A stretch of DNA of 64,000 nucleotides from assembly GCA_002780175.1 (NCBI GenBank), contig PEVT01000048.1:8754-72753 (forward strand). Reading direction: 5' to 3'. Origin of the DNA: Candidatus Moranbacteria bacterium CG06_land_8_20_14_3_00_40_12. Lineage in GTDB: Bacteria; Patescibacteriota; Minisyncoccia; Moranbacterales; UBA2206. The notes beneath the pieces are model-generated. The model ran no database searches, was not told where the DNA came from, and saw nothing but the letters and a program-made list of their open reading frames with translations. Shown piece by piece: positions 8,814 through 59,532 of this stretch. Both the position numbers and the translations under genes were made by a program. The number at the start of each line of letters is the position of its first letter. Position 1 is the first letter of the stretch.

Positions 8814-8817
8814 AAAC

Positions 8818-9543: not shown

Positions 9544-9557
9544 ATTAGATAATTAAT

Positions 9558-19150: not shown

Positions 19151-19153
19151 TTT

Positions 19154-20982: not shown

Positions 20983-20991
20983 TATTTTTTT

Positions 20992-23900
20992 ATGACAAAA
21001 ATCACCGAATCAAATATTGAAGAAATAGCCATTGAATTCTTGGAAGCGCAAGGCTATCAATATCTTTCACCTGAAGGGCAAGAAACGGAAAGAGAAAATT
21101 TAAGTGAGGTTGTTTTAAAAAAGCGCTTGAAAGATGCGATCAATCGGATTAATCCATACAAGCCGGAAGTTGTGCGCGAGCAAGCTTTCAAGGCAGTTTT
21201 TAATTTGGTTTCGCAGAATTTAATTGAAAGCAATGAAGAATTTCATCGGATGCTGACGGACGGAATTGACACCGAATTTTTAGCAGCGGATGGCATACGG
21301 GGAAATAAAGTTTGGCTGATTGACTTTGAGAATATCGAAAATAATGATTTCGTGGTTTGCAATCAATTTACGGTTAAGGAAAAAGAAGCGACGAAAAGAC
21401 CCGATCTTGTTTTGTTTGTGAATGGTTTGCCTTTGGTCGTGATTGAACTCAAAAATCCGGCGGATGAAAATGCGACGGTCAAAAAGGCTTTTATGCAACT
21501 CCAAAATTACAAAAATTTAATTCTGGCGCTTTTTAATTACAATGCGATTTTAGCGGCTTCGGACGGGTTGGATGCTAAAGCCGGATCGCTCACGGCCGGA
21601 TGGTCGAGATTTGCCGTTTGGAAAAATTCGGAAAATAAAAAGGAGGATAAAAAAACCGTTCCGCAATTGGAAACTTTAATAAAAGGGATGCTTCGTCCGA
21701 AAATTTTGCTTGATTTGATAAAACATTTTACCGTTTTTGAAAAAGCCAAAAAAAAAGATTCGGAGACGGGACAAGTTTTTGTGGAAACCGTGAAAAAAAT
21801 CGCGGCTTATCATCAATTTTACGCGGTGCAAAAAGCGGTTGAGTCAACGGAAAAAGCGGCGAGTGAGAATGGAGACCGGAGGTGCGGAGTAGTTTGGCAC
21901 ACGCAAGGATCCGGCAAATCATTGTCGATGGTTTTTTACGCTGGAAAGATTATTCAGAAACTGAATAATCTGACCATCTTAATAATTACGGATCGAAACG
22001 ATTTGGACGATCAGCTTTTTGATACTTTTGCGTCGTGCAAACAAATTTTGCGCCAGGACCCGGTGCAAGTTGAAAATAGAAATGATCTCAAGAAAAAATT
22101 AAAAGTTGCCGGAGGCGGAATTGTTTTTTCAACCATCCAAAAATTTATGCCCGAAGATGGAGGAGAAACTTTTGATTTATTATCTGACAGAAAAAATATA
22201 ATTGTGATCGCGGATGAAGCGCACCGGAGCCAGTATGGATTTAAGGGAAAAATTACATTTGCCGGCGGAGGCGCGCAACTCAAATACGGTTTTGCCAAAT
22301 ATGTGCGCGATGCTTTGCCAAACGCTTCTTTTATCGGATTTACCGGAACGCCAATTGAAACAACGGACAAATCCACGCCGGCGGTGTTTGGCGACTACAT
22401 CGATGTTTATGATATTCAGCAGGCAGTCAAAGATGGAGCGACCGTGCCGATTTATTATGAAAATCGGTTGGTAAAAGTGCATCTCAAAGAAGAAGATAGA
22501 AAAGAATTAGATGAAGTCGTAGATCAGATGACGGAAAAAGATGAACCGGTAGAAGCGGACAAGGCAAAAGCGAAATGGGCCAGAATTGAAGCGATTGTCG
22601 GCCAGCAGGAACGCTTGAAAGCAGTGGCGAATGATATTGTGGAACATTATGAAAAACGCAGCGAAGCGGTTGAAGGGAAAGCGATGATTGTGACGATGAG
22701 CCGCCGTATTGCCGTAGCTTTATGTAATGAAATTATAAAATTAAGACCAACATGGCAGAATCGCGCATTGGACAAAGGAACGATTAAAGTGGTAATGACA
22801 ACGACTATGACTGACCCGGCGGATTGGCAGGCGCATTGCACCACCAAAGAACAACGGCGAAAATTAGCGGACAGATTTAAGGATCCGAGTGATTCGCTTA
22901 AATTAGTGATTGTTCGGGATATGTGGCTGACCGGTTTTGACGCGCCTTGCGCGAAAGTAATGTATGTGGACAAGCTGATGCGCGGACATAATTTAATGCA
23001 AGCGATTGCCAGAGTGAATCGAGTTTATAAAGATATTAGAGGCGGTTTAATTGTTGATTATATTGGAATAGCGCGGGATTTGAAAAAAGCTCTGGCTGTT
23101 TATACGGAAAGTGGCGGGCAAGGAATTCCGACGCTAAATCTTTCTGAAGCCGCATCGACTATGCAGGAAAAATTTGAAATTATTGAGGAGATGTTTTCTG
23201 ATTTTAAATATAAAGATTATTTTTCAGCCGATATAAATCGAAAGATGCAACTCCTGCTTGAGGCGCAAGAGCATGTTCTTCAATTGCCTGATGGGAAGAA
23301 ACGATTCATTGAACACATTGAAACATTAATGCGATCTTATGCGCTGGTAGCGCCACGGCCGGAAGCAATGGCAATAAAAGAAGCGCTGGCCTTCTTTCAG
23401 GCTGTGAAAGTGCGGCTGGTTAAATTTGAATCTGCTGGCGGAAAGGGACGCGATTCGGAAGAAATTGAAACGGCGATTCGCCAGATTGTGGATAAAGCAT
23501 TAGCTTCAGAAGGCGTCATTGATATTTTCAGCGCGGCCGGAATCAAGAAACCCGATGTTTCTATTTTGTCCGAAGAATTTTTGGCCGAAGTAAGAGGAAT
23601 GGATCGCAAAAATCTGGCATTGGAACTCATGAAGAAGTTATTGAATAACGAAATTGATAGTATCAAAAGCAAGAATATAGTTTTGGGAAGAAAATTTTCA
23701 GAAATGCTGGACGATGTTTTAAAGCGCTACCAATCCAATATTTTAACTGCGGCAGAAATTATTGAAGAAATGATCGGTATGGCTCGAGAAATTCGAGGAG
23801 AAGGCGATCGAAAGAAAAAACTGGGTTTGGTAACGGATTACGAAGTGGCTTTTTATGATGCTCTGACTAACAACGCAAGCGCAAAAGAAGTTTTGAGTCA

Positions 23901-24117
23901 TGAAGTTTTGCGAGAGCTGGCTTGCGTTCTGGTAGACAAGGTAAAGGAAAATACATCTATCGATTGGACAATTAGAGAAAGCGCGCGGGCGAAATTGCGG
24001 GTAATGATTAAGCGGACATTGAATAAATTCGGTTATCCGCCTGATATGCAAAAATTGGCGACAGATTTGATTTTAAAACAAGCAGAATTATTCGCTGATG
24101 ATACTCTCAAAAATTAA
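20992..24117 (+). CDS. hsdR: Type I R-M restriction subunit HsdR (SF2 helicase/PD-(D/E)xK nuclease)
   Basis: N-terminal nuclease motif (FVNGLPLVVIELK), helicase motifs I (TQGSGKS) and II (VIADEAHRSQ), and a C-terminal HsdR domain. 1041 aa. Confidence 0.9.
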   Translation: MTKITESNIEEIAIEFLEAQGYQYLSPEGQETERENLSEVVLKKRLKDAINRINPYKPEVVREQAFKAVFNLVSQNLIESNEEFHRMLTDGIDTEFLAADGIRGNKVWLIDFENIENNDFVVCNQFTVKEKEATKRPDLVLFVNGLPLVVIELKNPADENATVKKAFMQLQNYKNLILALFNYNAILAASDGLDAKAGSLTAGWSRFAVWKNSENKKEDKKTVPQLETLIKGMLRPKILLDLIKHFTVFEKAKKKDSETGQVFVETVKKIAAYHQFYAVQKAVESTEKAASENGDRRCGVVWHTQGSGKSLSMVFYAGKIIQKLNNLTILIITDRNDLDDQLFDTFASCKQILRQDPVQVENRNDLKKKLKVAGGGIVFSTIQKFMPEDGGETFDLLSDRKNIIVIADEAHRSQYGFKGKITFAGGGAQLKYGFAKYVRDALPNASFIGFTGTPIETTDKSTPAVFGDYIDVYDIQQAVKDGATVPIYYENRLVKVHLKEEDRKELDEVVDQMTEKDEPVEADKAKAKWARIEAIVGQQERLKAVANDIVEHYEKRSEAVEGKAMIVTMSRRIAVALCNEIIKLRPTWQNRALDKGTIKVVMTTTMTDPADWQAHCTTKEQRRKLADRFKDPSDSLKLVIVRDMWLTGFDAPCAKVMYVDKLMRGHNLMQAIARVNRVYKDIRGGLIVDYIGIARDLKKALAVYTESGGQGIPTLNLSEAASTMQEKFEIIEEMFSDFKYKDYFSADINRKMQLLLEAQEHVLQLPDGKKRFIEHIETLMRSYALVAPRPEAMAIKEALAFFQAVKVRLVKFESAGGKGRDSEEIETAIRQIVDKALASEGVIDIFSAAGIKKPDVSILSEEFLAEVRGMDRKNLALELMKKLLNNEIDSIKSKNIVLGRKFSEMLDDVLKRYQSNILTAAEIIEEMIGMAREIRGEGDRKKKLGLVTDYEVAFYDALTNNASAKEVLSHEVLRELACVLVDKVKENTSIDWTIRESARAKLRVMIKRTLNKFGYPPDMQKLATDLILKQAELFADDTLKN

Positions 24118-30570: not shown

Positions 30571-31260
30571 ATGAATGAATTACAAACCTGGGGGGAAATA
30601 ACGACGATATCCCTGTTGAACTTGTGGGAAAAATTTATTAATTTTTTTCCGATTTTAATTGGAGCTTTACTGGTCTTTTTATTAGGCTGGGTAATCGCCG
30701 CGGTTATGGAGAAAGTGGTGGAAAAAATGATTTTTTCTTTGCGAATCAATCAGGCCTTTGAAAAAATGGGACTAAGAAAAAAATTAAGCGAGTCGGGAAT
30801 TAATTTAAATGTAGCGGCTTTTTTCGGAGGGCTGGTAAAATGGTTTTTAATCCTGGTTTTCTTAATGGCGGCTACGGATATCTTGCGTCTCAATCAAGTT
30901 ACTAACTTTCTCAATAACATACTTCTCTATATCCCCAATGTGGTGGTGGCAGTGATTATTTTGGCGGTTGTTTTTCTGGTGGGAAATTTTGTTTATGTTG
31001 TTGTCAAAGGAAGCACCCGAGCGGCCGGAATTATGTCGGCGACGCTATTAGCGACTATTTCCAAATGGTCCATAATAACTTTCGGATTTTTGGCGGCTCT
31101 GATTCAATTAGGCATCGCCACTTCTTTGGTGAGCACCATATTTATTGGCATTGTAGCCATGTTATCTTTGGCTGGCGGTTTAGCTTTCGGTTTGGGCGGC
31201 AAAGAAGAAGCGCAAATGATCCTGCGAAAATTACGGGAAGAAATTTCTGAAAGGAAATAA
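30571..31260 (+). CDS. Membrane protein with repeated MscS-type 'conserved TM helix' segments (mechanosensitive-channel-like)
   Basis: The start at ATG 30571 is preferred because AGGAGG lies 8 nt upstream. Three repeated TM hairpins follow. Family assignment is tentative. Confidence 0.45.
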   Translation: MNELQTWGEITTISLLNLWEKFINFFPILIGALLVFLLGWVIAAVMEKVVEKMIFSLRINQAFEKMGLRKKLSESGINLNVAAFFGGLVKWFLILVFLMAATDILRLNQVTNFLNNILLYIPNVVVAVIILAVVFLVGNFVYVVVKGSTRAAGIMSATLLATISKWSIITFGFLAALIQLGIATSLVSTIFIGIVAMLSLAGGLAFGLGGKEEAQMILRKLREEISERK

Positions 31261-31283
31261 TTTTGAATTAAAAAAGCGGTAAA

Positions 31284-31312
31284 AATGCTCCTCCGTCTGG
31301 CGGAGCATTTTA
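31284..31312 (+). terminator. Hairpin terminator (AATGCTCC-loop-GGAGCATT, then TTT)
   Basis: 8-bp stem seen directly. The T-tract is short. Confidence 0.45.
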
Positions 31313-31406
31313 GTTTCCAGGAGTCCTTTATGACCCCCCTCTTTACTCTTAATTGTCTGCCATGTCGCTTTTAAAATTATAGCCCGAATACTTTAAATTT
31401 AGCCTC

Positions 31407-31435
31407 TTGACAGCTTTTCGGGAGCTTGCTATTAT
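31407..31435 (+). promoter_or_regulatory. Consensus sigma70 promoter TTGACA-17-TATTAT upstream of the 23S rRNA gene
   Basis: TTGACA at 31407-31412, a 17-nt spacer, and TATTAT at 31430-31435. It lies ~600 nt upstream of the mature 23S 5' end. No 16S gene is present in the intervening DNA. Confidence 0.5.
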
Positions 31436-32160
31436 GGCAATACGTGTTAAATTTAAATAAATTAATTTTTTCCAGCCAATAAATGGTAGTGTCCAAGAAA
31501 TATTTTAAAAAGAAAAGCGGGTGAGTTTTTTGGTTTTTTTATTAAATGGATAAAAAAATTGGAAACCCGCGTAAGCGGTTTTTTTGTTTGTTTCTACCAG
31601 GTACTAATTACTAATCAAATACCTGCCTACCGGCAGGCAGGCTAATATACTAATAAATTAATTTTATTATTCGTATATTCGTAATAAATTCGTAATTCGT
31701 AAAGATTACAAGCATTACTTCGGAAACCAGTTTATATAACAAAAGATTAGGTTATATGCACACGTTTCCGCAGCAGCAGGACTTTAACAATTGAACAGGT
31801 CTTACTAAAATATTGGATTTCGAGCGCAAGCGGAAATTCGAATTGAATATTTTGGTTAGTCTTCCGGCATCTTCGCAATAAGATGCTGGAAATAGGTTAT
31901 CTTTGTTTTTATGAAGAAAAAACAAAGAAAATTGCAAATAACAAATGTAATTAGAAATTGTTAACTGCTAATTAATTCCGATCTTCTTATGATCGGAAGA
32001 TTCCTGTGAAAAATCAGGAAAAGTTTAAGGTAAGTTACTCAAATGCGTATGGTGGATGCCTTGACATTAAAAAGCGACGAAGGACGTAGCTGGCTGCGAT
32101 AAGCCCCGGGGAGTTGTTAAGCAAACTGTGATCCGGGGATTTCCGAATGCGATAACGCAA

Positions 32161-32350
32161 CCATTCTTCACTAACGTTCAGAATGAAATTTTAAAGACTA
32201 AATTTAAAATTTTAAATCAAATCTAAATGACTAAATTTTAAAAATTTAATCATTTGAAAATTTAAAATTCATTTAAAATTTATAATTTAAAATTGAAAAT
32301 TTACAGTTTTTGTAAATATAAAAGTTCTGAATATTAGCGAAGGATGGTTA
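32161..32350 (+). repeat. AT-rich expansion element in 23S domain I (copy 1)
   Basis: Starts CCATTCTTCACTAACGTTCAGAATGAAATTTTAAAGACTAAATTTAAAATTTTAAATCAAATCTAAATGAC. More than 90% identical to 32474-32600. Its terminal arms are imperfectly complementary. Confidence 0.7.
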
Positions 32351-32473
32351 TTCTTAGCTGAATTCATAGGTTAAGAAAGCGCACCCTGGGAACTGAAACA
32401 TCTTAGTACCAGGAGGAAAAGAAAACAATTGTGATTCCGTCAGTAGTGGCGAGCGAAAGCGGAATAGCCTAAA

Positions 32474-32638
32474 CCATTCTTCACTAACGTTCAGAATGAA
32501 ATTTTAAAGACTAAATTTAAAATTTTAAATCAAATCTAAATGACTAAATTTTAAAACTTTAATCATTTAAAAATTTAAAATTCATTTAAAATTTATAATT
32601 TAAAATTAAAAATTTCCGAGCAATAGCGAGGGATGGTG
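32474..32638 (+). repeat. AT-rich expansion element in 23S domain I (copy 2)
   Basis: Same element as 32161-32350. It is inserted ~130 nt further into the rRNA, after AGTAGTGGCGAGCGAAAGCGGAATAGCC. Confidence 0.7.
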
Positions 32639-32943
32639 TTGCGAGACAATCTTACTCGTTTAATCGGGACCGGTGAAAAATCATAGTGGAAAGCTCCTGG
32701 AAAGGACTGCCAAAGAAGGTGAAAGCCCTGTACATAAAATGATATTTTATCGGCGTGATTGCTCTCAAGTAAGACGGGACCGGTGAAATCCCGTCTGAAT
32801 CCGGGGCCACTATAGCTCCAAGGCTAAATATTTTTAATGATCGATAGCGAACTAGTACCGTGAGGGAAAGGTGAAAAGCATCCCGATGAGGGAGATGAAA
32901 TAGTATCTGAAACCATATGCTAACGAAGAGTCAGAGCCGTGCA

Positions 32944-33118
32944 TAGCACGGAAGCTCCAAATCCAAAATCCCAAATCCAAAATAAATCCCAAATCCAAAA
33001 TCCCAAAGTTTAAAACATTGGGTCATTGGAAAATTGTCTGGCTTTGCCAGACTTGGCGTAGCCAAGGAATTTGTTTGGAAATTGGAAATTGGAAATTGGA
33101 AATTCCGCGCTGTGCGCG
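32944..33118 (+). repeat. IVS-like insertion at 23S helix 25 (CCAAATCC/GGAAATTGG repeat arms, central GTCTGGCTTTGCCAGAC palindrome)
   Basis: It replaces the helix-25 loop between GAGCCGTGCATAGCACGGAAG and GCGCTGTGCGCGGTGATGGCGTGC. Arms are CCAAATCCAAAATCCCAAATCC... and ...GGAAATTGGAAATTGGAAATTCC. Confidence 0.7.
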
Positions 33119-33938
33119 GTGATGGCGTGCTTTTTGTAGAACGAGCCAACGAGTTAGTTCTGTGCGGCTGGATAAGCTACTTTCGTAGCGGATCCACAGT
33201 GAAAGCGAGGCTTAACCGCCGTTCGTTCGTATCATACTGCGTGTGATACTCACTTAAAATCAAAATTAAAAAATCAAAAATTAAAATTTTGGTATGCGCT
33301 TCGCGCATGACAATTATAGATAAGTAATTGTCGCGAAGCGACTCCTTAATTTTTCATTTTGATATTTAATTTTTAAATTTTAGCGAGTATCGAGCGTAGC
33401 GAGATACGAGCGATTGTCGTACGGACTAGACCCGAAGCCAGGCGAGCTATTTATGAGCAGGGTGAATTTGGAGTAAAATCCAAAAGAGGCCCGAACCCAC
33501 GAGCCGTTCAACACTCGGGGATGACTTGTGAATAGAGGAGAAATTCCAATCGAGCTTGGCGATAGCTGGTTCTTCCCGAAATAGCTTGAGGGCTAGTGTC
33601 TTTTAAATGAGCTTAAAAGGTAGAGCTACTGAATGAGAATTCGCGGTTCGCCGTAGGATTCTCAACCAAACTCCGAATTTTTAAGTTTCTTATTAGGGCA
33701 GTCAGAAATCCGGGTCTAAGCTCGGATCTCAAAAGGGAAAAAGCCCAGACCGCAATCTAAGGTCCCCAAATTTATGTTAAGTGGAAAAGGAGGTGAAGTT
33801 TCTTATACACCTAGGAGGTTGGCTCAGAAGCAGCCATCCTTTAAAGAGTGCGTAACAGCTCACTAGTCTAGAGACTTTGCGCCGAAAATTTAACGGGGCT
33901 AAACATAATACCGAAGGTGCGGGTCAGTGTTATGCACT

Positions 33939-34092
33939 GGAAATCCCAAATCCAAAATCCCAAATCCAAAATAAATCCCAAATCCAAAATCCCAAAGTTT
34001 AAAACATTGGGTCATTGGAAAAGTGCCTGCCTGCCGGCAGGCAGGGAATTTGTTTGGAAATTGGAAATTGGAAATTGGAAATTCCAGCGCGT
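33939..34092 (+). repeat. IVS-like insertion at 23S helix 45 (same arm element, central CCTGCCTGCCGGCAGGCAGG palindrome)
   Basis: Arms identical to 32944-33118. The central hairpin is swapped for the 20-bp GC palindrome at 34026-34045. Confidence 0.7.
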
Positions 34093-35261
34093 AGCGCTGG
34101 CGGTAGGGAAGTGTTCTCTGCGCAGCGAAGTCCACGATGTGAATCGGGATGGAGCGCAGAGAAGTAAGAATGTTGGCATGAGTAACCACAATACCGATGA
34201 AAACTCGGTACACCGAAAGTCTAAGGTTTCCTGGGCAATGACAATCATCCCAGGGTTAGTCGGGCCTAAGGCGAGGCCGAAAGGCGTAGTCGATGGACAT
34301 ACGGTTAATATTCCGTAACTTCAAAAATTTTCGATGGAGCGACGTATCTTTGTAGTTTTTGCGCATTATTGGATTTGCGTATTTAATTTGAGGGTGCTTT
34401 TCAGGCAAATCCGGAAAGTATCGCCCAAGAATTAGGTGGAATTCCGACGTAAGTCGGGAGAACAAAGGCGAGCAAGGTACCAGGAAAAACTTCTAAGATT
34501 ATGATTTTTGAATCCGTACTAAAACCGACACAGGTAGACTGGGCGAGAAGCCTAAGGTGAACGGATGAACCTTCGTCAAGGAACTCTGCAATACAACTAG
34601 ACGTAAGTTAGCAAGATGTCTTTCCTACACCACCTTGATTCTTTAGATTATTTTTTAATAAGGAATCAGAGTGGTGTAGGACACAGTAAAAAATTTCAAG
34701 CGACTGTTTATCAAAAACACAGGTCTCTGCAAACTCGCAAGAGGAAGTATAGGGGCTGACGCCTGACCAGTGCTGGAACGTTAACGGAAGCGGTGCAAGC
34801 CAATTCCCGAAGCGCCAGTGAACGTCGGCGATAACTATAATCGTCCTAAGGTAGCGAAATTCCTTGTCAGGTAAGTTCTGACCCGCATCAAAGGCGTAAC
34901 GACTTGAAAACTGTCTCGACGAAGAGTCCGGTGAAATTGCAATGGCGGTAAAGATGCCGTCGACCTGCAGCAAGACGAAAAGACCCCGTGGAGCTTTACT
35001 ACAACTTGGTATTGACTTAGAGTTTTAGTTGCCGAGCTTAGGTGGGAGGCTGTGAAGTCCCGATTCTGGTCGGGATGGAGCCAACAAGTGGAATACCACC
35101 CTGCTGATGTTCTAAGTCTAACCCTGGTCTGTTATGAGTCTACTAAGACGAATAACCATTGATGAACCAGAAAATATACTCAAATTGTTTAGTGTGTTTT
35201 TCATGGTTCAAAAATTTATTTAGTCTTAGTTATTCATACCAGACCGGGAACAGTGCCTGGT

Positions 35262-35294
<33 letters not shown>

Positions 35295-35455
35295 GGCAAC
35301 GGAGGCGTTTACAAAGGTTGGCTAGGTCCGGATGGAAATCGGACTGATAGTACAAAAGCATAAGCCAGCTTTACTGAAAGACCCATAAGTCAATCAGTCA
35401 CGAAAGTGGAATTTAGTGAACCGACCATCGCTCATAGGAGCGTGGAAGATCATCA

Positions 35456-35488
<33 letters not shown>

Positions 35489-35620
35489 CCTCCCAAGAGT
35501 CCACATCGACGGAGGGGTTTGGCACCTCGATGTCGGCCCATCGCATCCTGGGGGTGGAGAAGCTCCCAAGGGTTTGGCTGTTCGCCAATTAAAGCGGTAC
35601 GCGAGCTGGGTTCAAACCGT

Positions 35621-35903
35621 AAAACAGCTTTTAGCTATTAGCTTATAGCTTTTAGGTAAAGGAAATTTTACAGTTTGAATCCGAGGTAAAGACATCACAA
35701 GCGGCGGCTTTTAGTAGCAATATTAAAAGTGAAGCTAACTTATATCGGTAAAATCCCGAATTCTCGGGACAATACCGAGGGAATGGTTCGACTTTGCTCA
35801 CCATGAGCGATAAGAATCGACCCGTAGAGACTAAACGTTAGCCTTCCTGAATTTTAGGGAAGAATTTATAGTCCATACACGCAGTAATGCGTGAACCAGT
35901 ATG
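35621..35903 (+). ncRNA. Putative group I intron (283 nt) in 23S domain V near the peptidyl-transferase centre
   Basis: It interrupts GGGTTCAAACCGT | CGTGAGACAGGTTGG (E. coli GGGUUUAGAACGUCGUGAGACAG). The 5' exon ends in U and the insert ends in G. P7-like strands AGAGACTAAACG and TATAGTC sit ~60 nt apart. No ORF. Confidence 0.5.
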
Positions 35904-36099
35904 CGTGAGACAGGTTGGTCTCCTATCTGCTGTGGGCGTTTATTGCTTGAGAGGAGTCTTTTTTAGTACGAGAGGACCGAAAAGAACGAACCTCTGGTGT
36001 ACCAGTTGCATCGCCAGATGCACAGCTGGGTAGCTAAGTTCGGACTGGATAATCGCTGAAAGCATATAAGCGAGAAGCCATCCTCAAGATTAGGCAATG

Positions 36100-36290
36100 C
36101 CAATGCGTAGCATTGGAATAACCAATGACCAAGTACCAATGACCAATAAATTTCCAATGACCGAATGAACAATTTTTAAATTAAAAGTTTGATTATTGGA
36201 GTTTGGGATTTGAGATTTTTTTGGAATTTGGAATTTGGAATTTGGAAATTCCACTGCTATGCAGTGGCCGATTTCCTGGAAGATTACCAG
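36100..36290 (+). repeat. Expansion insertion in 23S 3' domain (helix ~98 region) with (GGAATTT)x4 and CCAATGACC repeats
   Basis: Sits between GCATATAAGCGAGAAGCC and GATAGGTCTCAGGTGTAAGT. Contains TTTGGAATTTGGAATTTGGAATTTGGAAATTCC. Confidence 0.6.
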
Positions 36291-36532
36291 GTCGCCGCGA
36301 GGCGAACCTCGCCAAAGCCGCAAGGCGGAGGCGGGTTGATAGGTCTCAGGTGTAAGTCCGGCAACGGATTAAGCCGAGAGATACTAATAAATTGAATTGT
36401 TACTTATCTTAAATTTTAATGACGCAGGCACATAGCAAATAACTTTGGGTTATTCGCTGTGGCCGCGTGTTGTTGGATTAGCAGTTAATAGTTTCTAATT
36501 TCGCGCTTTTTTTGATTTTAAACATATAATTC

Positions 36533-36647
36533 TTGGTGTCTCTAGCGAAGTGGCAACACCTGATCCCATTCCGAACTCAGCCGTTAAGCACTTCAGCACC
36601 GATGATACCCCGACATTATGTCCGGGGAAAGTAGGCCGGTGCCAAGA
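36533..36647 (+). rRNA. rrf: 5S ribosomal RNA
   Basis: TTGGTGTCTCTAGCGAAGTGGCAACACCTGATCCCATTCCGAACTCAGCCGTTAAGCACTTCAGCACCGATGATACC...GGCCGGTGCCAAGA. It lies ~120 nt after the 23S gene. Confidence 0.85.
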
Positions 36648-36852
36648 ATTATGTGTTTAAAAAGGGCGTGGTTTTTTATTGGTCGCCGTCCGTTTATTTC
36701 GGATATGTTTCATAAAATCAAAGCATTTTCGTATAATTTTAAAAACTTCAAAATTACTGGATCTGGTTTAACATCAAAACCTTCGCGTTTTTTTTGTTTA
36801 TTCCGCGCCTTTTTACGCCAAGCGCGGACCTTAAAAAACTCATTAAAATCAT

Positions 36853-36880
36853 TCATTTTCGCGGTAAGCCGCGAAATTTT
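36853..36880 (+). terminator. Hairpin terminator after the rRNA operon (TTCGCGG-TAAG-CCGCGAA-ATTTTTTG)
   Basis: Seen directly. Several other GC hairpins lie in 36650-36980. Confidence 0.5.
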
Positions 36881-37048
36881 TTGAAAGATGCGAGGTTTGA
36901 TTGTTTATGCTAAAATAAAAGCGAGCTAATTTAAACGATAATTCCCGCCAGAGGCGGGCAAGCTCGCCGTTTTATGCTTATAGTTTGCTGTAAAAATAAA
37001 ATTCAGAAATTTTTCTGGAATAAATATTACTAAATTAAAATTAAAAAA

Positions 37049-37879
37049 ATGGAAAAAAGAGATTTAAAAAGGTTGATTATAATTCTAATTTATCTTTTAA
37101 TTTTAGCCAGCCTTTCCTTGGCGGCTTATTTTTGGTTGCGGCCGAAAGAATCTTGTTTCGACCAAAAAATGAATCAGAATGAACAGGGGATAGATTGCGG
37201 CGGAATTTGCCAAAAAAGATGCAATCTTCTTCCGCAATTTGATTTAACGGTCGGGGAGAAAGGATTCGTGGAAAGCGGAATTTCCGGAAAATACGATCTT
37301 TTTGGGGAAATTTCCAATCCGAACAATGATTTTGGAAGCGGAAGTTTCAGCTATGAATTTAAAATTAAAGATTCAACCGGAATCACTTTAAACCAATTTT
37401 CCGGAAAAAGCTTTATTTTGCCCGGAGAAAAAAAATATCTGATTGCCGTCAATATACCGGCGGAATCTGTTCCCGGAGAAATAACCCTGGCAGTAAGCGA
37501 GGTAAAATGGGAGGAGTTCGTAAATTATGAAAAACCGCAACTGAAAATTATCAATCGGAGTTACCAGGAGACGAGTTCCGGGGTTGGTTTCAGCGAAGCC
37601 TTTGGCCTGCTTAAGAATGAAAGCCCCTTTGATTTTAGCACGATCAAAATCAACGTAGTTCTTAAAGATTATGCCGGTAAAATATTGGCTCTCAATTCGA
37701 CAATCATCAACACGGTTAAAACAGGAGAAAGCCGAGATTTCAAGGTTATTTGGCCGAGTAAATTTTCCGGAGAAGTTGAAGATATGGAATTTCAAACAGA
37801 AGTGAATGTTTTTAGTTCGGAGGCTTTTGTGGAAAGATATTTTAGAAGTAAAAAATTTCAGAAATACGATTATCAATAG
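37049..37879 (+). CDS. Hypothetical secreted/membrane-anchored protein
   Basis: N-terminal signal/TM helix. 276 aa. No family recognised. Confidence 0.4.
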   Translation: MEKRDLKRLIIILIYLLILASLSLAAYFWLRPKESCFDQKMNQNEQGIDCGGICQKRCNLLPQFDLTVGEKGFVESGISGKYDLFGEISNPNNDFGSGSFSYEFKIKDSTGITLNQFSGKSFILPGEKKYLIAVNIPAESVPGEITLAVSEVKWEEFVNYEKPQLKIINRSYQETSSGVGFSEAFGLLKNESPFDFSTIKINVVLKDYAGKILALNSTIINTVKTGESRDFKVIWPSKFSGEVEDMEFQTEVNVFSSEAFVERYFRSKKFQKYDYQ

Positions 37880-53022: not shown

Positions 53023-53544
53023 ATGAAAGAGCTAAAAAAGGATAAGCGAAAAAGGAGAAAATCCGCCGGGTTAAGTTTTAATCAATTAAAAAATAAGCTT
53101 ATGTCGGTTCTTGATCCCATCTCCAAAGGAGATTTAAATTTAAAAGACAAGTTTATGGAAAAGACGGAAGATTCGGAGAAGAATTCTTCAGGCCAAGGCG
53201 CCGAAAAGGAATCTGGAGAGATTAAATATGCTCCGGAAAAAAACAAAGAAGGCGCGCCGGAGAAAAAAGAGGAAACTTATTCTAAAATACTTTCCCAGGT
53301 AACTTCTTATAAACCAGCCGATACCCAAAATTTGGAAGAAGACGCGCGAAAAGTTCAGGCGGAAAAAGAAGTTAAAGCCAAAATAACCAAACTAGTGGGG
53401 TTAGCCAGGGGAAAAGGAGTTATTTACGCCGTTAAAGTGGCGAGAAAAGTGGAAGATAATTATACCCTGGACGAATTTCATGATTGTCTGGCGCATGAAT
53501 TCCAGGCGGCTTTAATTAAAGAAGGTTTAATTAAAGAAATTTAA
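53023..53544 (+). CDS. Hypothetical highly charged protein (Lys/Glu-rich)
   Basis: 173 aa. No family recognised. Sits upstream of the ATPase gene. Confidence 0.35.
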   Translation: MKELKKDKRKRRKSAGLSFNQLKNKLMSVLDPISKGDLNLKDKFMEKTEDSEKNSSGQGAEKESGEIKYAPEKNKEGAPEKKEETYSKILSQVTSYKPADTQNLEEDARKVQAEKEVKAKITKLVGLARGKGVIYAVKVARKVEDNYTLDEFHDCLAHEFQAALIKEGLIKEI

Positions 53545-53555
53545 ATTTCGAAAAA

Positions 53556-53700
53556 AAAGCGTCATCCCAAACGGAATCCCGGGTATTCGGGACGAAGTCG
53601 AAGGATCTACTTTGTAAATTTTAATTAGATCCCCTGCCTACCGACCCGCCTATCGGAGGTCAGGCAGACAGGCTCGACGAAGCCCGGGATGATATGGAAT
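53556..53700. repeat. Composite palindromic element (GTCATCCC...GGGATGA termini with degenerate CCTGCC palindrome core)
   Basis: CGTCATCCCAAACGGAATCCCGGGTATTCGGGACGAAGTCG ... CGACGAAGCCCGGGATGATATGG. The core is CCTGCCTACCGACCCGCCTATCGGAGGTCAGGCAGACAGG. Confidence 0.55.
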
Positions 53701-53735
53701 TAACTGATAATTTCATCAAATAATATTTATTTTTT

Positions 53736-56207
53736 ATGCCGGCCATAGATTCATTGTTTGTTTTAGTGGTAATCCTTTTTGGATTGACGGCTTTATTCAG
53801 CGGACTGCTTTTGGTGTTGCGCAGTTTTTTAAATTTTCGGATAAATATCCATCGTTCCATAAACATGGATTTGGAAATAATCCGAGTTTCCAAAATTAAC
53901 CGTCCCAAAGAAGAACAGGAAAAACAGGAATTTTGGAAAGAAGAAATCGGAGCGATGGAGCAGCTTTTGACTTCGCTTTCCGGATTCAAAGAAACCGGCG
54001 GTTGGTGGAAACGGCTCATTTACGGACAGCCGCATATTTCTTTTGAAATTGCCAATTCGGCTAAAGACGAGGAAATAATTTTTTTCGTGGCCATGCCTAA
54101 AAAATTCAGAGAAGCCATAGAAAAGCAAATTAACAGTTTTTTCCCCAACGCTTCCTTGGAACTTTCCCAGGATTTTAATATTTTCTATCCCGGCAGCGTT
54201 ACTTGCGCTTCCATTTTAAAATTAAAAAACAACTATATTTTCCCCATAAAAACTTATGAAAATCTGGAAATAGATCCGCTTAACGCTTTAACAAACGCTT
54301 TAAGCAAGCTAAGCAGAACGGAAGAGGGAGCGGCGGTTCAGCTGGTTTTTTGTCCGGTATTGCCCGGCTGGAGAATGAAAGGCCGGAAAATTGCCAGAGA
54401 AATGCAACAAGGAAAAAGATTGAGCCAGGTTTATTCAAAATCCTTTTTGTCCAAAGTCGGGAAAGAAATGGGAGACACTTTTTATAAAACCGTCATCAAA
54501 TCGGAGAAAGCGGAAAATAAAGGAGGATTAGACTCCAAATCGGTTCAACTGACCCCAGAAGAGCAGGAGCTGGTTAAAAGCATTGATCAAAAGTCCAGTA
54601 AAGCCGGGTTCGCGGTTAACATTCGCTTAGTCGCTTCTTCCGAAAGCCAGGAAAGATCGCAGCAGATTTTATCCCAGCTGGAAAACGCCTTTGTTCAGTA
54701 TGAAAATTCCGATCTTAATTGTTTTCAGATTTTCAAGAGAGTCGATCAGAAAGACATAGCTTTTGATTTTATTTTTCGGAATTTTATTTCCAACCAGGCG
54801 ATGATACTCAATGTCGAAGAAATCGCCAGTATTTTTCATTTACCCATTTCAGTTACCGAAGCGCCGAGAATCAAATGGCTCAAATCCAATATGGCCGCGC
54901 CGCCAGTGGATATTCCCCAGGAAGGCTTGATTTTAGGGTTTAACGATTATCGGGGAACTAAGACCAGCATCCGCATTACGGATGAAGATCGCCGGAGGCA
55001 TCTTTATTCTATCGGCCAGACCGGAACCGGAAAATCAAACTTTCTCCAGGAAATGGCCAAACAAGACGCTAAAAACGGCAAAGGTTTTTGCTTTATTGAT
55101 CCGCATGGCCAAGCCGTGGAAGATATTTTAAGCTGTATTCCCAAGGAAAGAGCCGAGGATGTGGTTATTTTCGATCCCTCGGACGTAGAGCGGCCTTTCG
55201 GCTTGAATATGCTGGAATATGACGAAAAACGTCCGGAACAGAAAACTTTCGTGATCAACGAAATGATTGGGATCTTTGATCAGTTGTATGATTTGCGGCA
55301 GACCGGCGGGCCGATGTTCGAGCAATATGTGAGGAACGCCATGCTTTTAGTGATGGAAGATCCCCAATCCGGTTCCACTTTGATGGAAATTCCCAAAGTG
55401 CTGGCGGATGAAGGTTTCAGGAAAATGAAGCTGTCCCGCTGCCAGAATCCGGTAGTGGTTGATTTTTGGACCAAGGAAGCGGAAAAAGCCGGCGGAGAAG
55501 CGGCTCTGGCTAATATGGTGCCCTACATCACTTCCAAGCTCACCACTTTTATTTCCAACGATATGATGAGGCCGATTATCGCCCAGCAAAAAAGCACCAT
55601 TAATTTCCGGCAAATCATGGATCAGAAAAAAATTCTACTAATTAATCTTTCTAAAGGGAAAATCGGCGAAATCAACGCGAGGCTTTTGGGAATGGTGATT
55701 GTGGGTAAAATTTTAATGGCGGCGCTCTCAAGAGTGGATATTCCAGAAGAAGAGCGGGTGGATTTTTATCTGTATATGGACGAGTTCCAAAATGTGACTA
55801 CCAATTCCATCGCGCAAATTCTTTCCGAAGCCCGGAAATACCGCCTGTGTTTGATTTTAGCCAATCAGTTCATCGGTCAGCTAAAAGAAGAAATTTCCAA
55901 GGCGGTTTTTGGCAATGTGGGTTCTTTGATTTCTTTCCGGGTGGGTTCGGAAGACGGAGAATTTCTGGAAAAACAATTCGCGCCGGTTTTTTCTCAAAAC
56001 GATCTGGTTAATGTGGATAATTATAACGGTTTTGCCAAAATTCTGGTAAAAAATATTTTAACCAAGCCGTTTAACATCAAGACTTATCCGCCGACCAAAG
56101 GCAATCCGGAAATTTCCCAGGCGCTTAAAGAATTATCGCGCCTCAAATACGGCCGGGACAAAGATATCGTCAACAAAGAAATTATGGAACGGATCAAATT
56201 GGTTTAA
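53736..56207 (+). CDS. Membrane-anchored P-loop ATPase of the TraD/VirD4-VirB4-HerA/FtsK superfamily (AAA_10/DUF87-like)
   Basis: An N-terminal TM helix, then a ~380-aa unknown domain. Walker A IGQTGTGKSNFL is followed by FIDPHGQ...VIFDPSD...PFGLNML. Walker B is FYLYMDEFQNV, followed by ARKYRLCLILANQFIGQL. The exact family is unresolved. Confidence 0.5.
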   Translation: MPAIDSLFVLVVILFGLTALFSGLLLVLRSFLNFRINIHRSINMDLEIIRVSKINRPKEEQEKQEFWKEEIGAMEQLLTSLSGFKETGGWWKRLIYGQPHISFEIANSAKDEEIIFFVAMPKKFREAIEKQINSFFPNASLELSQDFNIFYPGSVTCASILKLKNNYIFPIKTYENLEIDPLNALTNALSKLSRTEEGAAVQLVFCPVLPGWRMKGRKIAREMQQGKRLSQVYSKSFLSKVGKEMGDTFYKTVIKSEKAENKGGLDSKSVQLTPEEQELVKSIDQKSSKAGFAVNIRLVASSESQERSQQILSQLENAFVQYENSDLNCFQIFKRVDQKDIAFDFIFRNFISNQAMILNVEEIASIFHLPISVTEAPRIKWLKSNMAAPPVDIPQEGLILGFNDYRGTKTSIRITDEDRRRHLYSIGQTGTGKSNFLQEMAKQDAKNGKGFCFIDPHGQAVEDILSCIPKERAEDVVIFDPSDVERPFGLNMLEYDEKRPEQKTFVINEMIGIFDQLYDLRQTGGPMFEQYVRNAMLLVMEDPQSGSTLMEIPKVLADEGFRKMKLSRCQNPVVVDFWTKEAEKAGGEAALANMVPYITSKLTTFISNDMMRPIIAQQKSTINFRQIMDQKKILLINLSKGKIGEINARLLGMVIVGKILMAALSRVDIPEEERVDFYLYMDEFQNVTTNSIAQILSEARKYRLCLILANQFIGQLKEEISKAVFGNVGSLISFRVGSEDGEFLEKQFAPVFSQNDLVNVDNYNGFAKILVKNILTKPFNIKTYPPTKGNPEISQALKELSRLKYGRDKDIVNKEIMERIKLV

Positions 56208-56220
56208 AAAAATGTCATTG

Positions 56221-56240
56221 CCTGCCTGCCGGCAGGCAGG
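56221..56240. repeat. Perfect 20-bp palindrome CCTGCCTGCCGGCAGGCAGG preceded by TGTCATTG
   Basis: Seen directly after the ATPase stop. Identical copies lie at 34026-34045 and 47318-37. A 1-mismatch copy lies at 31622-41. Degenerate copies lie at 7761-79, 8848-63 and 53633-80. Confidence 0.85.
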
Positions 56241-56827
56241 CGAAGAAGTTTCGCCTCAAAACAATCGCGGCAGTCTAAATGTATTGTCCGTAAAAACAAA
56301 AAAGCTTTCTATTGAAGCTTTTTTAAATTTTATATGGCATTTCGGCGTCATCCAAAATCATCGCGCCATTTCGCGCGTGGTCGCGATTAAATTTTGGGGT
56401 AGTTTTTATCAAAATCAGGGTTTATTTTTTTAAACCAGGGACAATCCCAGCATTGGTATATTTTTTTAACTACTTTCGGACAGAAAGGTTCTTTGCTTAA
56501 TGAGCCCGCGATAAACCAGCATTCTTTTCCTGAATCGGTCGTGTATGCGGGACATTTTTTTCTGACCTCGATATCGCAATTTTGGAGTTCCCAACAATTT
56601 TGGGGTTCTTTTTCACTCGTAGTGGAATATGGATTTAATTATTATATAATTTTTATGTCCGCGAAACAATAAACAACATCACGCGCAATGTTTCGGAATA
56701 CGCGATGTTCGTTTTTTGGATTTATTGAACTAATTTGTGATTTGACTTAGGGCTATTTTATCACACTTTAACTTATTCCAGAAGTGCAAAATTTTTAACC
56801 AGATATACCGTGCTATATGATGTAAAT

Positions 56828-57336: not shown

Positions 57337-59532
57337 TTAATCGGCTAAAAAGGATTGAACGGTGTTTTCGGCGGAAAAGTAAACGGTGTTGGTATCTTCG
57401 TTCACGGCAAAATCAGTAGAGTCGGCAATTTCCGGATGATAATATTGGGCCAATATTTTTCCGGTCAGATCCAGTTTGACGACGCGGGAATTAGCTTTAT
57501 CCAAAATCCAGATGTTTTGGCCGTTAATTTTAGCGGCGACTTTAAAGGGCAGGATTTTAGCGGGAGTTTCTTCAATAGTCAGATCTTGTTTTTTCCCCCG
57601 GAAAAGTTTCAGCAGATTTTCCGGTTCGGCCAGATAGATATTTTCATTGATGGCGATGTCGGAAGCCCGGGCAATGTCAAAATCCTCTTTTTTCCAGTTG
57701 ATTTTTTCCCCAAAGCCGCCTTCGGCGCGGGGATAGCGGTAGATTTGATTGTTGGCCGAATCCACCAAATAAAGGTAAGTCAAGTAAGTGCCAGCCAGGA
57801 TTATTTTGGCGCTCTCCGGAAGATTAAGGATATTATCCTGGAATTTTTTGGAAACCGGGCTGAAAGCCAGGGCTTTGCCTTGCGGATTAATTAAAATTAT
57901 CAGATCGAGATCGTTTATGCCGGAAGCAACCTCGATTTTTTTAAAGGTTTCGGGAATGGCAAATTCCTGCTGATTTTCCAGGTCAAATATTTTTTTATCC
58001 GAAAAAGCGAAAATTTTATCTTTGAGATTTATCAAACGGACGATTTCTTCCGAAAAATTAACGGCTGAATTTAAATTTTCCAGGCGCGTCAAGCCAGGTT
58101 CATTTTCCAGAGGAATTATAACCGGAGCGGTTTCGACAATTTGGCTGGCCAGCTTTTTCTGCTCCATATTTTTCTGGATTTTGACAATGAAAACAGGGAC
58201 GACAAAAATCAAAAAAATAATTACCAAAGCATAAAGTTTTTGCTTTCCGGTCATTCGGGCAAAGAGTTTTCGAAGGATGTAAAAATCAGGGAAAAAGCGG
58301 AACTTTTTTTCCATTGATGGAACAGAAACTTCTCCGGGAGAAAAATCAGATTCGATGTTTGCAATCGCCGGCGCGGATTTTTTGAATAAACGGAAGAATC
58401 TGTTGATAATCCAGACGACGCAATCCTTAAAGAAAGAAAAAATAAGCGCTAAAAGGCGGCCGAAAAAGAGCCCTATCCGGATTATTTTTTCCTTAAAAGG
58501 ATAAGTCTTTAAGCTTTTTAAAAAAGGTTGTATTTTTTCTCCGACTTTTTTAGCTTGAATTTGCAATAAAGAGCCCGATTGATCAAAATAAGCTTTCTTT
58601 TTGAAAAGAAAAAAAGAAGAAATTTTTTCGAATTTTTCGGGTTTTGCGGATTCTTTGATATAAATATGTCCGACTTTAGGCGTTTTTTCTTTGGGTGGAA
58701 GAAATTGATCCGGGATTTTTTCCATTTTGACTTCCGGCGCCATTTTTCTTTTTAAGGCAGGCTTGGAAAAGACGGAATTGCTAAAAACGTTCATTTTTTC
58801 CGCTTTTCTGGAAACAGGAAGAACAAGTTCCTCTTTTTCCCTGATATCCACTACCAAAGCCGCCGCCTTTTCCAATTTATTAACCAATACAGTTCTTAAA
58901 AATTGGGCGAAATCTTTTTCGGAAAAATTTAAAGCGTTGTTTTTTATTTCTTCCAAATCCAGGACATCGAGAATATTATCGGTGATAATAATAAGCTTAT
59001 CCTGGTTTTCCAATTTCCCGCTGGAAATATTAACGAAAGTTTTTAAAGGATTAGGTTCGAGATTATCAGGTGATAAATCCTCGCTGATATTGGTCAAGTA
59101 GCCGTTGCGCAATAAAAGGGCTAAAGTATTTCCGGTCTGGGTAAGATGCAAGTTTTGTTTTTCCGCCACGGCGCAAAGAGCGTTAATTTTTCCAATCCAA
59201 TTGATATTGCCGTATTCGGCCAGTTTAGCCAGAGCCAGATTGGCTTTATGGAGGGCGGCTTCAAAACTTTCCACCGCCCCTCTTTTGGGCCGGGAAAAAT
59301 ATTCTTTTTTAATCACGGAAATCAGATAATTTACGATATAGGAAGAATCTTCCGAATTATCGTTAATTTCAAAAATTCCCAAAAGAGCGCCCAGATCTTT
59401 TTGAGTGATATTTTCCGGTTCGTGCACGAAAACTTCCAAAAAAGGGCGATTTTCTTTGTCGTTGCAGACTAAAATTTCCTCAAAAAAAGATTCCATTTCG
59501 GTAATTTTTTTTCCCAATTTTTTTTTCAACAT
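57337..59532 (-). CDS. Large hypothetical membrane-spanning protein (731 aa)
   Basis: N-terminal cytoplasmic domain, a central cluster of TM helices (LYALVIIFLIFVVPVFIV; LALIFSFF) and a C-terminal beta-rich domain. No family confidently recognised. Confidence 0.4.
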   Translation of the reverse strand: MLKKKLGKKITEMESFFEEILVCNDKENRPFLEVFVHEPENITQKDLGALLGIFEINDNSEDSSYIVNYLISVIKKEYFSRPKRGAVESFEAALHKANLALAKLAEYGNINWIGKINALCAVAEKQNLHLTQTGNTLALLLRNGYLTNISEDLSPDNLEPNPLKTFVNISSGKLENQDKLIIITDNILDVLDLEEIKNNALNFSEKDFAQFLRTVLVNKLEKAAALVVDIREKEELVLPVSRKAEKMNVFSNSVFSKPALKRKMAPEVKMEKIPDQFLPPKEKTPKVGHIYIKESAKPEKFEKISSFFLFKKKAYFDQSGSLLQIQAKKVGEKIQPFLKSLKTYPFKEKIIRIGLFFGRLLALIFSFFKDCVVWIINRFFRLFKKSAPAIANIESDFSPGEVSVPSMEKKFRFFPDFYILRKLFARMTGKQKLYALVIIFLIFVVPVFIVKIQKNMEQKKLASQIVETAPVIIPLENEPGLTRLENLNSAVNFSEEIVRLINLKDKIFAFSDKKIFDLENQQEFAIPETFKKIEVASGINDLDLIILINPQGKALAFSPVSKKFQDNILNLPESAKIILAGTYLTYLYLVDSANNQIYRYPRAEGGFGEKINWKKEDFDIARASDIAINENIYLAEPENLLKLFRGKKQDLTIEETPAKILPFKVAAKINGQNIWILDKANSRVVKLDLTGKILAQYYHPEIADSTDFAVNEDTNTVYFSAENTVQSFLAD

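Follow-up and report, generated by a model that had tools for sequence, protein, structure and literature searches.

In the conjugative plasmids of Gram-positive bacteria a coupling ATPase feeds DNA into a type IV secretion channel. The type IV secretion systems (T4SSs) of the candidate phyla radiation (CPR, or Patescibacteria) are derived from monoderm conjugation machinery (PMC12102498). Transposon sequencing (Tn-seq) of Ca. S. epibionticum has shown its T4SS to be required for epibiotic growth, and the T4SS gene cluster of this organism has no recognizable relaxase and no recognizable coupling protein (PMC10633639). The crenarchaeal CedD is described as consisting of a transmembrane (TM) segment, a domain resembling the N-terminal domain (NTD) of VirB4 and a HerA/VirB4-type ATPase; it lies away from any classical T4SS and is needed for DNA import (PMC11868833). 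Here we describe a pair of co-directional genes in a 64-kb stretch of a Candidatus Moranbacteria (CPR) chromosome (contig PEVT01000048.1, positions 8,754 to 72,753; hereafter the window, with position 1 its first nucleotide). The first gene (53023–53544, + strand) encodes a Lys/Glu-rich protein of 173 residues and the second (53736–56207, + strand) an ATPase of 823 residues; both open reading frames (ORFs) are as a first-pass annotation of the window had described them, and the motifs it quoted are present in the translation. We show that the ATPase descends from conjugative coupling proteins and that the small protein is a real, lineage-specific partner of it, and we read the ATPase as a chromosomal, vertically inherited patescibacterial lineage of the monoderm-type type IV coupling protein (T4CP; VirD4/TraD/TrwB clade, FtsK-HerA superfamily).

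The ATPase and its motor domain

Database searches with the ATPase returned 3939 homologs, with precomputed Pfam assignments to PF26449, PF10412 and PF12696, and identity within the 120 closest of them was 70–91%. The classification in the TraD/VirB4/HerA superfamily made by the first-pass annotation was upheld. In a Pfam search TrwB_AAD_bind (32.9 bits, against a gathering threshold (GA) of 20.5) and TraG-D_C (23.0 bits, GA 22) both passed, and TraD models matched all 30 of 30 diverse family members (best E-value 1e-17). Of the other families it had named for checking, DUF87 scored 22.9 bits, slightly below its GA, and AAA_10 was not matched; the window protein also had no match to CagE_TrbE_VirB or TIGR00929 in Pfam and NCBIfam. 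The NCBIfam matches of the ATPase to TraD, VirD4-like, TrbC and CedD models were all sub-threshold (for TraD/VirD4, e.g., 26.8 against a cut-off of 366). Across the 30 diverse members the CedD model gave weak matches to 27 (best 1e-8), spanning the second half of the N-terminal domain and the P-loop, and the VirB4_CagE model TIGR00929 matched nine, all weakly and below its cut-off. When the family profile was searched against the sequences of the PDB, the best matches were to TrwB (5e-8) and then DotL (7e-5), with no VirB4 among the matches. At the level of sequence, the motor is thus nearest to the coupling proteins.

The motor domain (54930–56105, + strand; residues 399–790) comprises a RecA-like P-loop core and an all-alpha insertion. 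In an AlphaFold2 (AF2) model of the ATPase (pLDDT 87.5, pTM 0.77) the helices of this insertion (residues ~502–615) lie between Walker A and Walker B and are flanked by strands at 476–479 and 633–637. Structural comparison of the motor gave the highest score to the C-terminal domain (CTD) of VirB4 (4ag5; 29.8, over 332 residues at 2.9 Å), followed by the DndH C-domain (28.4), TrwB (27.7, over 365 residues), HerA (25.3), DotL (24.2), Cagbeta (22.0), TcpA (17.3) and FtsK (17.0), and Foldseek was consistent with this ranking, with Cagbeta (8dol) among its structural matches. The TrwB alignment is long enough to cover the all-alpha insertion; as the VirB4 CTD has this insertion too, it does not discriminate between a T4CP and a VirB4. 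Within the FtsK-HerA superfamily, the motor falls in the VirB4/VirD4 branch.

Walker A, Walker B and the arginine/sensor motifs of this FtsK-HerA-type P-loop motor are all intact. The Walker A motif GQTGTGKS (55014–55037, + strand; residues 427–434) has G427, G430, G432 and K433 invariant in both of our alignments, as is the catalytic pair D682-E683 of the Walker B motif YLYMDE (55767–55784, + strand; residues 678–683). The translation also has FIDPHGQ at residues 453–459, IFDPSD at 478–483, PFGLNML at 487–493 and ARKYR...LANQ...QL at 699–716. Across 30 relatives of 35–49% identity, Walker A from G427 to S434, D682-E683, E698-A-R-K-Y702, Q711 and G726-N-x-G729 are invariant, and across 122 relatives the same motifs are invariant or at least 90% conserved. 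Such invariance at only 35–49% identity argues that the ATPase is under selection as an active enzyme. One metagenome-assembled genome (MAG) of the CPR has the ATPase in two ORFs of 397 and 457 residues, 30 nt apart (L083, 324–2921), which is either a frameshift/pseudogene or an assembly error.

The single N-terminal TM helix that had been proposed was recovered as a hydrophobic segment at residues 4–32 (53745–53831, + strand), within a helix at residues 3–42 of the AF2 model. In a Kyte-Doolittle scan, such a helix was found in 51 of 54 homologs that are not fused to the partner described below and in none of the 26 that are. The R/K-rich residues that follow the helix suggest an N-out/C-in topology, which would place the motor in the cytoplasm.

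The N-terminal domain

The first-pass annotation had left an N-terminal domain of ~380 residues unplaced. The domain is real (53853–54929, + strand; residues 40–398) but can be placed: precomputed annotation of a protein 100% identical to the window ATPase assigns it to Pfam PF26449.1, DUF8128, on which a literature search under that name found no paper. It consists of two alpha+beta subdomains with a disordered, charged loop between them (residues ~237–268). A phmmer search with residues 1–395 against 1.84 billion representatives found 1833 clusters at E-values of 1e-3 or less, the full-length members being ~790–970 residues long.

The structural match of this domain was to chain A of 7o42, the VirB4 protein TrwK, with 248 residues aligned. 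We infer that the match lies in the N-terminal part of VirB4 and not in the RecA-like CTD of TrwK, since no other P-loop ATPase was among the matches of the N-terminal domain, nor in the Hcp1 tag fused to TrwK in this chain, which is too small for 248 aligned residues. In addition, Foldseek aligned the full-length ATPase model collinearly with whole VirB4 chains, over ~900 columns. Based on these three points, DUF8128 is, by its predicted fold, a VirB4-NTD-like domain and a structural homolog of the VirB4 N-terminal domain, so that the window protein joins a VirB4-type N-terminal domain to a RecA-like ATPase domain at its C-terminus. A VirB4-NTD-like domain has been found independently for the archaeal CedB and CedD (PMC11868833).

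Relatives outside the CPR

A tblastn search of PLSDB with the ATPase matched 263 plasmids, 41 of which cover at least 80% of the query, in hosts that include Streptomyces, Embleya, Bacillus, Priestia, Shouchella, Clostridium, haloarchaea and Sulfolobus. On plasmid unnamed2 of Embleya sp. NBC_00896, the homolog is an 812-residue protein annotated as a type IV secretory system conjugative DNA transfer family protein (WP_331738717.1), with 27% identity over residues 68–806 and an E-value of 3e-83; as this alignment begins at residue 68, it takes in the N-terminal domain. The gene order there is TrbL_4 (VirB6-like), PrgI (VirB3-like), a VirB4-like ATPase (AAA_10/TraC/P-loop_TraG), the homolog, a Replic_Relax relaxase and an NlpC/P60 hydrolase. 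On the 31 kb ENTPro plasmid of Shouchella clausii the homolog, a DUF87 protein (WP_248290882.1), is directly followed by genes for a replication-relaxation protein, conjugal-transfer proteins and an 837-residue ATP-binding protein, and on a B. subtilis plasmid the homolog clusters with genes of the TcpC/D/E families. We considered the latter as the pLS20 coupling protein and did not make this identification, p48 of pLS20 being described as a 786-residue protein with two TM helices in a different operon.

As full-length homologs on plasmids of Actinobacteria and Bacillota adjoin relaxase and VirB4/VirB6-like genes, the family is that of a monoderm-type coupling protein, and as these plasmid proteins share the VirB4-like N-terminal domain, this domain is a trait of the monoderm coupling-protein class and no invention of the CPR. 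In a haloarchaeal plasmid, of Natrinema caseinilyticum (L087, 7770–11964), the match is divided between neighboring genes for a 382-residue hypothetical protein and a 1018-residue T4SS DNA-transfer family protein; the VirB4-like domain may be encoded separately there, reminiscent of the stand-alone TrsD.

The small partner protein

The partner is a cytoplasmic protein whose N-terminal half is charged and poorly conserved and whose C-terminal ~70 residues (residues ~100–171) form a conserved helical domain with the motif KG[VI]..AV..A....D.Y.LD.FHD.L...L...L.K.G; in our alignment D150 and D154 are invariant and G132, H153 and L156 nearly so. The first 26 residues of the 173-residue ORF are not conserved, and the ATG at 53101 would yield a protein of 147 residues, with homologs of 125–154 residues; judged by this conservation, the true partner is possibly the 147-residue form. 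We found no Pfam family, no NCBIfam or PADLOC match and no sequence relative in the PDB (best E-value 1.1) for this protein. Its 373 homologs are all annotated as hypothetical, none has a Pfam domain, and every one with a named source is from the CPR.

The first-pass annotation had drawn attention to this small charged protein preceding the ATPase, and this claim of a small partner holds, the partner gene being directly upstream of the ATPase gene in 21 loci from several CPR classes and fused to it in 26 others (among the 84 loci described below). A hidden Markov model (HMM) of the partner C-terminus matched residues ~70–160 of the N-terminal extension in 26 of the 26 fused ATPases (E-values 6e-9 to 7e-4), and hhalign between the full-length partner and residues 1–165 of these proteins gave a probability of 97.8% (E-value 8e-13, 121 columns). 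Read as a Rosetta-stone fusion, this relationship between the separate partner and the N-terminal extension implies physical association of the two proteins. As the fused ATPases have no TM helix, the partner stands in them where the anchor would be, at the N-terminal end of the VirB4-like domain.

Between the two genes of the window is a structured spacer of 191 nt (53545–53735), the MITE-like (miniature inverted-repeat transposable element) sequence that the first-pass annotation had reported upstream of the ATPase. Its ends are the inverted repeats GTCATCCC and GGGATGAT, there are GC-rich hairpins inside, and its predicted RNA fold has an energy of -53.9 kcal/mol (z -2.4). At this position homologous loci have gaps of 17–183 nt (-4 to 12 nt in Paceibacteria-type loci), and judged by these shorter gaps the spacer is probably a small MITE-like insertion within the gene pair and no functional part of the system. 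The GC palindrome reported downstream of the ATPase is likewise present, as a perfect palindrome of 22 nt rather than the 20 bp claimed (GCCTGCCTGCCGGCAGGCAGGC, 56220–56241, 13 nt past the ATPase stop codon). With two mismatches or fewer, its core GCCTGCCGGCAGGC occurs at 8847, 31625, 34029, 44828, 47321 and 56224, against 0.03 occurrences expected. Since the window has the core at some five other intergenic positions, the palindrome is a copy of a dispersed, genome-wide element and not specific to the ATPase; it may be a hairpin terminator or a REP-like (repetitive extragenic palindromic) repeat. A promoter and terminator scan of the locus performed no better than on shuffled sequence.

Neighborhoods and lineages in the CPR

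A single scan of a collection of species-representative genomes confirmed at least 599 loci, and the best 80 of these are all from Patescibacteria (Moran-, Uhr-, Falkow-, Komeili-, Magasanik-, Pacei-, Nomura-, Zambryski-, Taylor-, Vogel-, Doudna-, Wolfe- and Niyogibacteria). For neighborhood counts we called and clustered the ORFs of 84 loci and examined the neighbors of the ATPase gene, which revealed three recurrent arrangements. In type A (21 loci, including that of the window) a partner of 125–173 residues is encoded directly upstream of an ATPase of 786–834 residues, with holB, an FtsQ-like gene and PMT_2 genes further upstream and genes for an uncharacterized membrane protein of 720–860 residues and RmuC downstream. 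In type B (15 loci; ATPase 815–873 residues) the upstream gene encodes an unrelated protein of 150–194 residues (fam5, motif WLKIIPGVNKFFLEQEAKIKTDKI), cysS and CorA genes are upstream, and the gene for an uncharacterized protein of ~200 residues (fam4) and then dnaX are downstream. In type C (26 loci) there is no separate partner gene and the partner is fused to the ATPase (908–968 residues in 25 loci, and one ORF call of 1164 residues), whose gene directly follows secY-adk-map and is followed by ndk and an RNase J-like gene. The ATPase loci are fixed positions in the core genome and no mobile islands.

In a neighbor-joining tree rooted on the plasmid proteins, types B and C each formed a single clade and type A fell into two, so that the type of partner tracks the ATPase lineage. 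We considered whether fam5 might be a diverged form of the window partner, but hhalign gave this a probability of only 0.3% and we treat the two as unrelated. Neither fam5 nor fam4 had a Pfam match. The fam4 protein, just downstream of the ATPase in all 15 type-B loci (e.g., L029, 12598–13272, and L022, 11408–11998), has the conserved core VIEGVFDGQ.M.G.DGK.Y.VP.NYASKSKLVEGD.L.L...WAA.ENV and may be a further component of this subtype. Several MAGs carry third-party labels (uncultured Bdellovibrionales, Gammaproteobacteria and Candidatus Saccharibacteria) that conflict with the Moranbacteria-type, Paceibacteria-type or type-B CPR synteny of their loci (including L004, L005, L007, L008, L021, L023, L024, L029 and L081), the proteins being 45–67% identical to those of the window; these suspect organism labels were left out of the taxonomy.

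Function of the gene pair

The model that we put forward for the function of this pair, and to which we would give an even chance, is that the ATPase, with the partner as its adaptor, feeds a CPR T4SS encoded elsewhere. The ATPase would assemble as a hexameric ring on the cytoplasmic side of the membrane, and the small helical partner would bind close to its membrane-proximal N-terminal end, acting as an adaptor or regulator in a role comparable to that of CagZ for Cagbeta, TraM for TraD, and IcmSW/DotMN for DotL. ATP hydrolysis would hand a macromolecular substrate, protein or DNA, to a channel formed by the CPR T4SS (VirB4/VirB6/VirB3/VirB8 with VirB2-like pilins) from a separate locus. This T4SS is the most economical candidate for the channel, as it originates from monoderm conjugation, is encoded elsewhere and has a gene cluster without a coupling protein.

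A number of observations weigh against this model. Domain and family scans of the 64-kb window found no VirB4, VirB6, relaxase, other T4SS gene or nuclease partner, in agreement with what the first-pass annotation had noted, and no VirB4, other T4SS gene or relaxase is within ±10 kb in the 84 CPR loci, none of which has an integrase or nuclease neighbor. There are at least three paralogous ATPase lineages, and one of them has no membrane anchor, which is unusual for a coupling protein that docks to a channel. In a published survey VirD4-like homologs, which may include proteins other than those with DUF8128, numbered 5,713 in 2,918 of 3,035 CPR genomes (about 96%), and only 148 of the 5,713 are near virB4 (PMC12102498), although the genes even of genuine T4CPs are often away from virB4 (PMC12102498). 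The same survey found VirB4 in 2,417 CPR genomes, ~500 fewer than the 2,918 with T4CP homologs, and relaxases to be scarce (109 in 103 genomes; PMC12102498), so that the classical substrate of a coupling protein is missing from most CPR genomes. Finally, the t4cp homolog of S. epibionticum is non-essential while the T4SS is essential, and the authors themselves raised the exaptation of CPR T4CP homologs (PMC12102498).

Because of the VirB4 counts, the 148 of 5,713 homologs near virB4, the non-essential S. epibionticum homolog and the lineage without an anchor, a role independent of any T4SS is a serious rival, and a possible one, if in our judgment still tentative. The same family would here be an exapted motor that works alone or with another channel, with the partner as a regulator; it might be a translocase for DNA import or handling akin to CedB/CedD, or the motor of ComEC/type IV pilus uptake in bacteria that are nucleotide auxotrophs. 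In its favor, the architecture is identical to that of CedD as described (PMC11868833), the CedD model finds most family members, if weakly, and the published homologs are more widespread than VirB4 (PMC12102498). The genomic contexts are all housekeeping and several are related to DNA (in type A holB upstream and RmuC downstream, in type B dnaX downstream), but the adjacency to holB and dnaX may be mere synteny of small genomes. The CedD score of the window protein is also only 21.7, against a family cut-off of 600 bits; the competence of S. epibionticum is explained by ComEC and type IV pili, with no reported need for the protein described here; and no gene for ComEC, a channel or a pilus is linked in any of the 84 loci. 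The association with type IV pilus or competence genes that the first-pass annotation proposed to check was thus not borne out, as there is no linked pilus or ComEC gene and 43 kb separate the locus from the pilus cluster of the window.

A stronger version holds that this is a near-universal patescibacterial family of coupling-protein descent which has been domesticated as a core, T4SS-independent motor with an adaptor family of its own, a proposal that we consider possible but less likely than not. If it is true, such a motor has an adaptor that, depending on the lineage, is separate, is fused in place of the membrane anchor or is swapped for an unrelated small protein; it would power a process at the heart of life as auxotrophic epibionts, for instance the handling or CedD-like import of foreign DNA or the delivery of other macromolecules, and would represent a new functional class of VirB4/VirD4-type ATPase.

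That the ATPase is an FtsK/SpoIIIE-like housekeeping DNA pump of the divisome seems to us improbable. An FtsQ-like POTRA protein and holB are encoded three to four genes away in the window, and the high conservation among the closest homologs would also fit. However, this FtsQ neighborhood is confined to Moranbacteria-type synteny, types B and C being in unrelated contexts, and there is no FtsK_SpoIIIE match in Pfam or NCBIfam. FtsK typically has four to five TM helices, and the window protein has one, and no winged-helix gamma (KOPS-binding) domain; FtsK is also a much weaker structural match. Transcriptome papers on TM7x (Saccharibacteria) mention FtsK, a hint that a separate FtsK may exist in the CPR. 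An FtsK paralog in a conserved divisome context, the finding that the first-pass annotation had set as incompatible with its own proposal, was not found at the locus.

The first-pass annotation had also pointed to HerA-like ATPases that pair with nucleases in defense systems, and a HerA-type ATPase of anti-phage defense or DNA repair would fit the DUF87/HerA similarity (1e-4 in Pfam), the PADLOC match of the ATPase core to mad8 (1.4e-11, with weak HerA matches besides) and the presence of restriction-modification (R-M) systems elsewhere in the window. This suggestion did not hold up, and we regard such a role as very unlikely: neither the window nor any of the 84 loci has NurA, Sir2, DUF4297 or another nuclease or effector adjacent to the gene, the three neighboring proteins scanned had no MADS match and no other MADS component is adjacent in the window, the N-terminal domain is no HAS barrel, and, unlike defense islands, the gene is near-universal and keeps its synteny with core genes. 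Just as improbable is that the gene is what remains of an integrated conjugative element or plasmid, to which the plasmid-borne coupling proteins as closest non-CPR homologs and the MITE-like insertion and palindromes flanking the gene might point, but whose relaxase, integrase, VirB4 or repeat boundaries are absent, while the flanking genes are conserved across related genomes, the three lineages are at fixed housekeeping positions (e.g., after secY-adk-map in 26 loci) and the GC content of the gene (0.43, against 0.37–0.38 around it) is inside the spread across the window.

The family is already in databases as DUF8128 and as "T4SS DNA-binding / TraM-recognition domain protein", and orphan T4CP homologs in the CPR have been published. 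As far as we found, DUF8128 had not been described as a VirB4-type N-terminal domain common to plasmid coupling proteins, nor had the partner family with its fusion and anchor swap or the three syntenic lineages. The CPR is a large share of bacterial diversity, and the VirB4-like N-terminal domain, the dedicated and sometimes fused partner and the three lineages at fixed housekeeping positions are handles for experiment; the interaction of partner and ATPase, co-occurrence with VirB4 and localization can decide between the feeding of a T4SS and a new role, and the locus is useful for designing secretion experiments in the CPR. The presence of a VirB4-type N-terminal domain in one class of Gram-positive and actinobacterial coupling proteins also bears on the divergence of VirB4 and VirD4.

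Other features of the window

The names on the closest homologs are Candidatus Moranbacteria or Patescibacteria, and the housekeeping content of the window includes ligA, gatA, gyrB, a 23S-5S rRNA pair, ftsW/rodA, L25, murA and mreB. Further genes are those for a type IV pilus cluster, glycosyltransferases, holB, the FtsQ-like protein, two PMT_2 glycosyltransferases and two R-M systems. The pilus cluster (1320–10625) is complete, unlinked and ~43 kb from the ATPase locus, with genes for PilB (1320–3035), a PilT-like protein (3451–4530), PilC (4638–5849), a prepilin peptidase (6947–7732), three N-methyl pilins (7795–9543) and a PilX_N and LamG protein (9558–10625). The 23S rRNA gene (32028–36411, + strand) spans 4384 nt and matched the 2925-nt Rfam model end to end, and hence there must be ~1.46 kb of insertion(s) inside the gene, resembling the rRNA introns reported in CPR bacteria. 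The 5S rRNA (36532–36647) is downstream of it, and a scan of 31000–37200 found no 16S gene adjacent to the 23S.

The type I R-M operon (16657–24117) has two extra genes within the hsdM-hsdR interval, encoding a PIN_12 protein (18179–19150) between hsdM and hsdS and an uncharacterized protein of 209 residues (20353–20982) between hsdS and hsdR. The second R-M system is an Eco57I/MmeI-like type IIG enzyme of 922 residues (60696–63464). In the window this enzyme follows a VTT/DedA gene, where related genomes have RmuC and glycosyltransferase genes instead, which suggests that it is a local insertion. Downstream of the ATPase and convergent with it is the gene for a protein of 731 residues (57337–59532, - strand) without a Pfam, NCBIfam or PADLOC match. 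It is kept as the convergent downstream neighbor in ~10 Moranbacteria-type loci (719–859 residues). Its N-terminal domain is conserved, its middle is of low complexity and includes a TM segment, and its C-terminal region is repeat-like.

Comparison with known systems

The window protein does not have the motor signature, multi-pass N-terminal membrane domain and gamma domain of FtsK/SpoIIIE, and it has neither the HAS-barrel N-terminal domain nor the adjacent nuclease or effector of HerA. With CedD it shares the architecture; yet it scores 21.7 against the cut-off of 600 bits for NF053655, and there are no Ced genes and no linked CedA/VirB6-like gene. The N-terminal domain of CedD covers only part of the VirB4 NTD (PMC11868833), whereas that of the window protein aligns over 248 residues, and the crenarchaeal Ced system, in which CedD occurs with CedB, is archaeal and induced by ultraviolet light.

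With respect to VirB4 (TrwK of R388, 7o42/8rtd; the VirB4 CTD of T. pseudethanolicus, 4ag5), the window protein has no sequence membership in the family and its profiles favor the T4CPs; its plasmid relatives have a separate, genuine VirB4-like ATPase encoded next door, and the VirB3/VirB6/VirB8 cluster is absent from the neighborhoods of the CPR ATPases. Classical VirD4/TrwB proteins have two TM helices. Like the T4CPs (VirD4/TraD/TrwB), the window protein has an N-terminal membrane anchor, of one TM helix (a sister lineage has none), and an all-alpha domain between Walker A and B. Linkage to relaxase and mating-pair-formation genes is seen in the full-length plasmid homologs but neither in the window nor in the 84 CPR loci.

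The pairs Cagbeta-CagZ, TraD-TraM and DotL-IcmSW/DotMN, like the CPR pair, consist of a coupling ATPase and a small, mostly helical protein. This likeness is one of role only, as the CPR partner resembles no Pfam or PDB entry in sequence and, as indicated by the fusions, would be located at the N-terminus of the ATPase and not at the all-alpha domain or the C-terminal tail. The monoderm plasmid T4CPs adjoin a Replic_Relax relaxase and VirB4/VirB6/VirB3-like genes, whereas their CPR counterparts sit among housekeeping genes, have a dedicated small partner or a fusion with it, and are split into at least three lineages.

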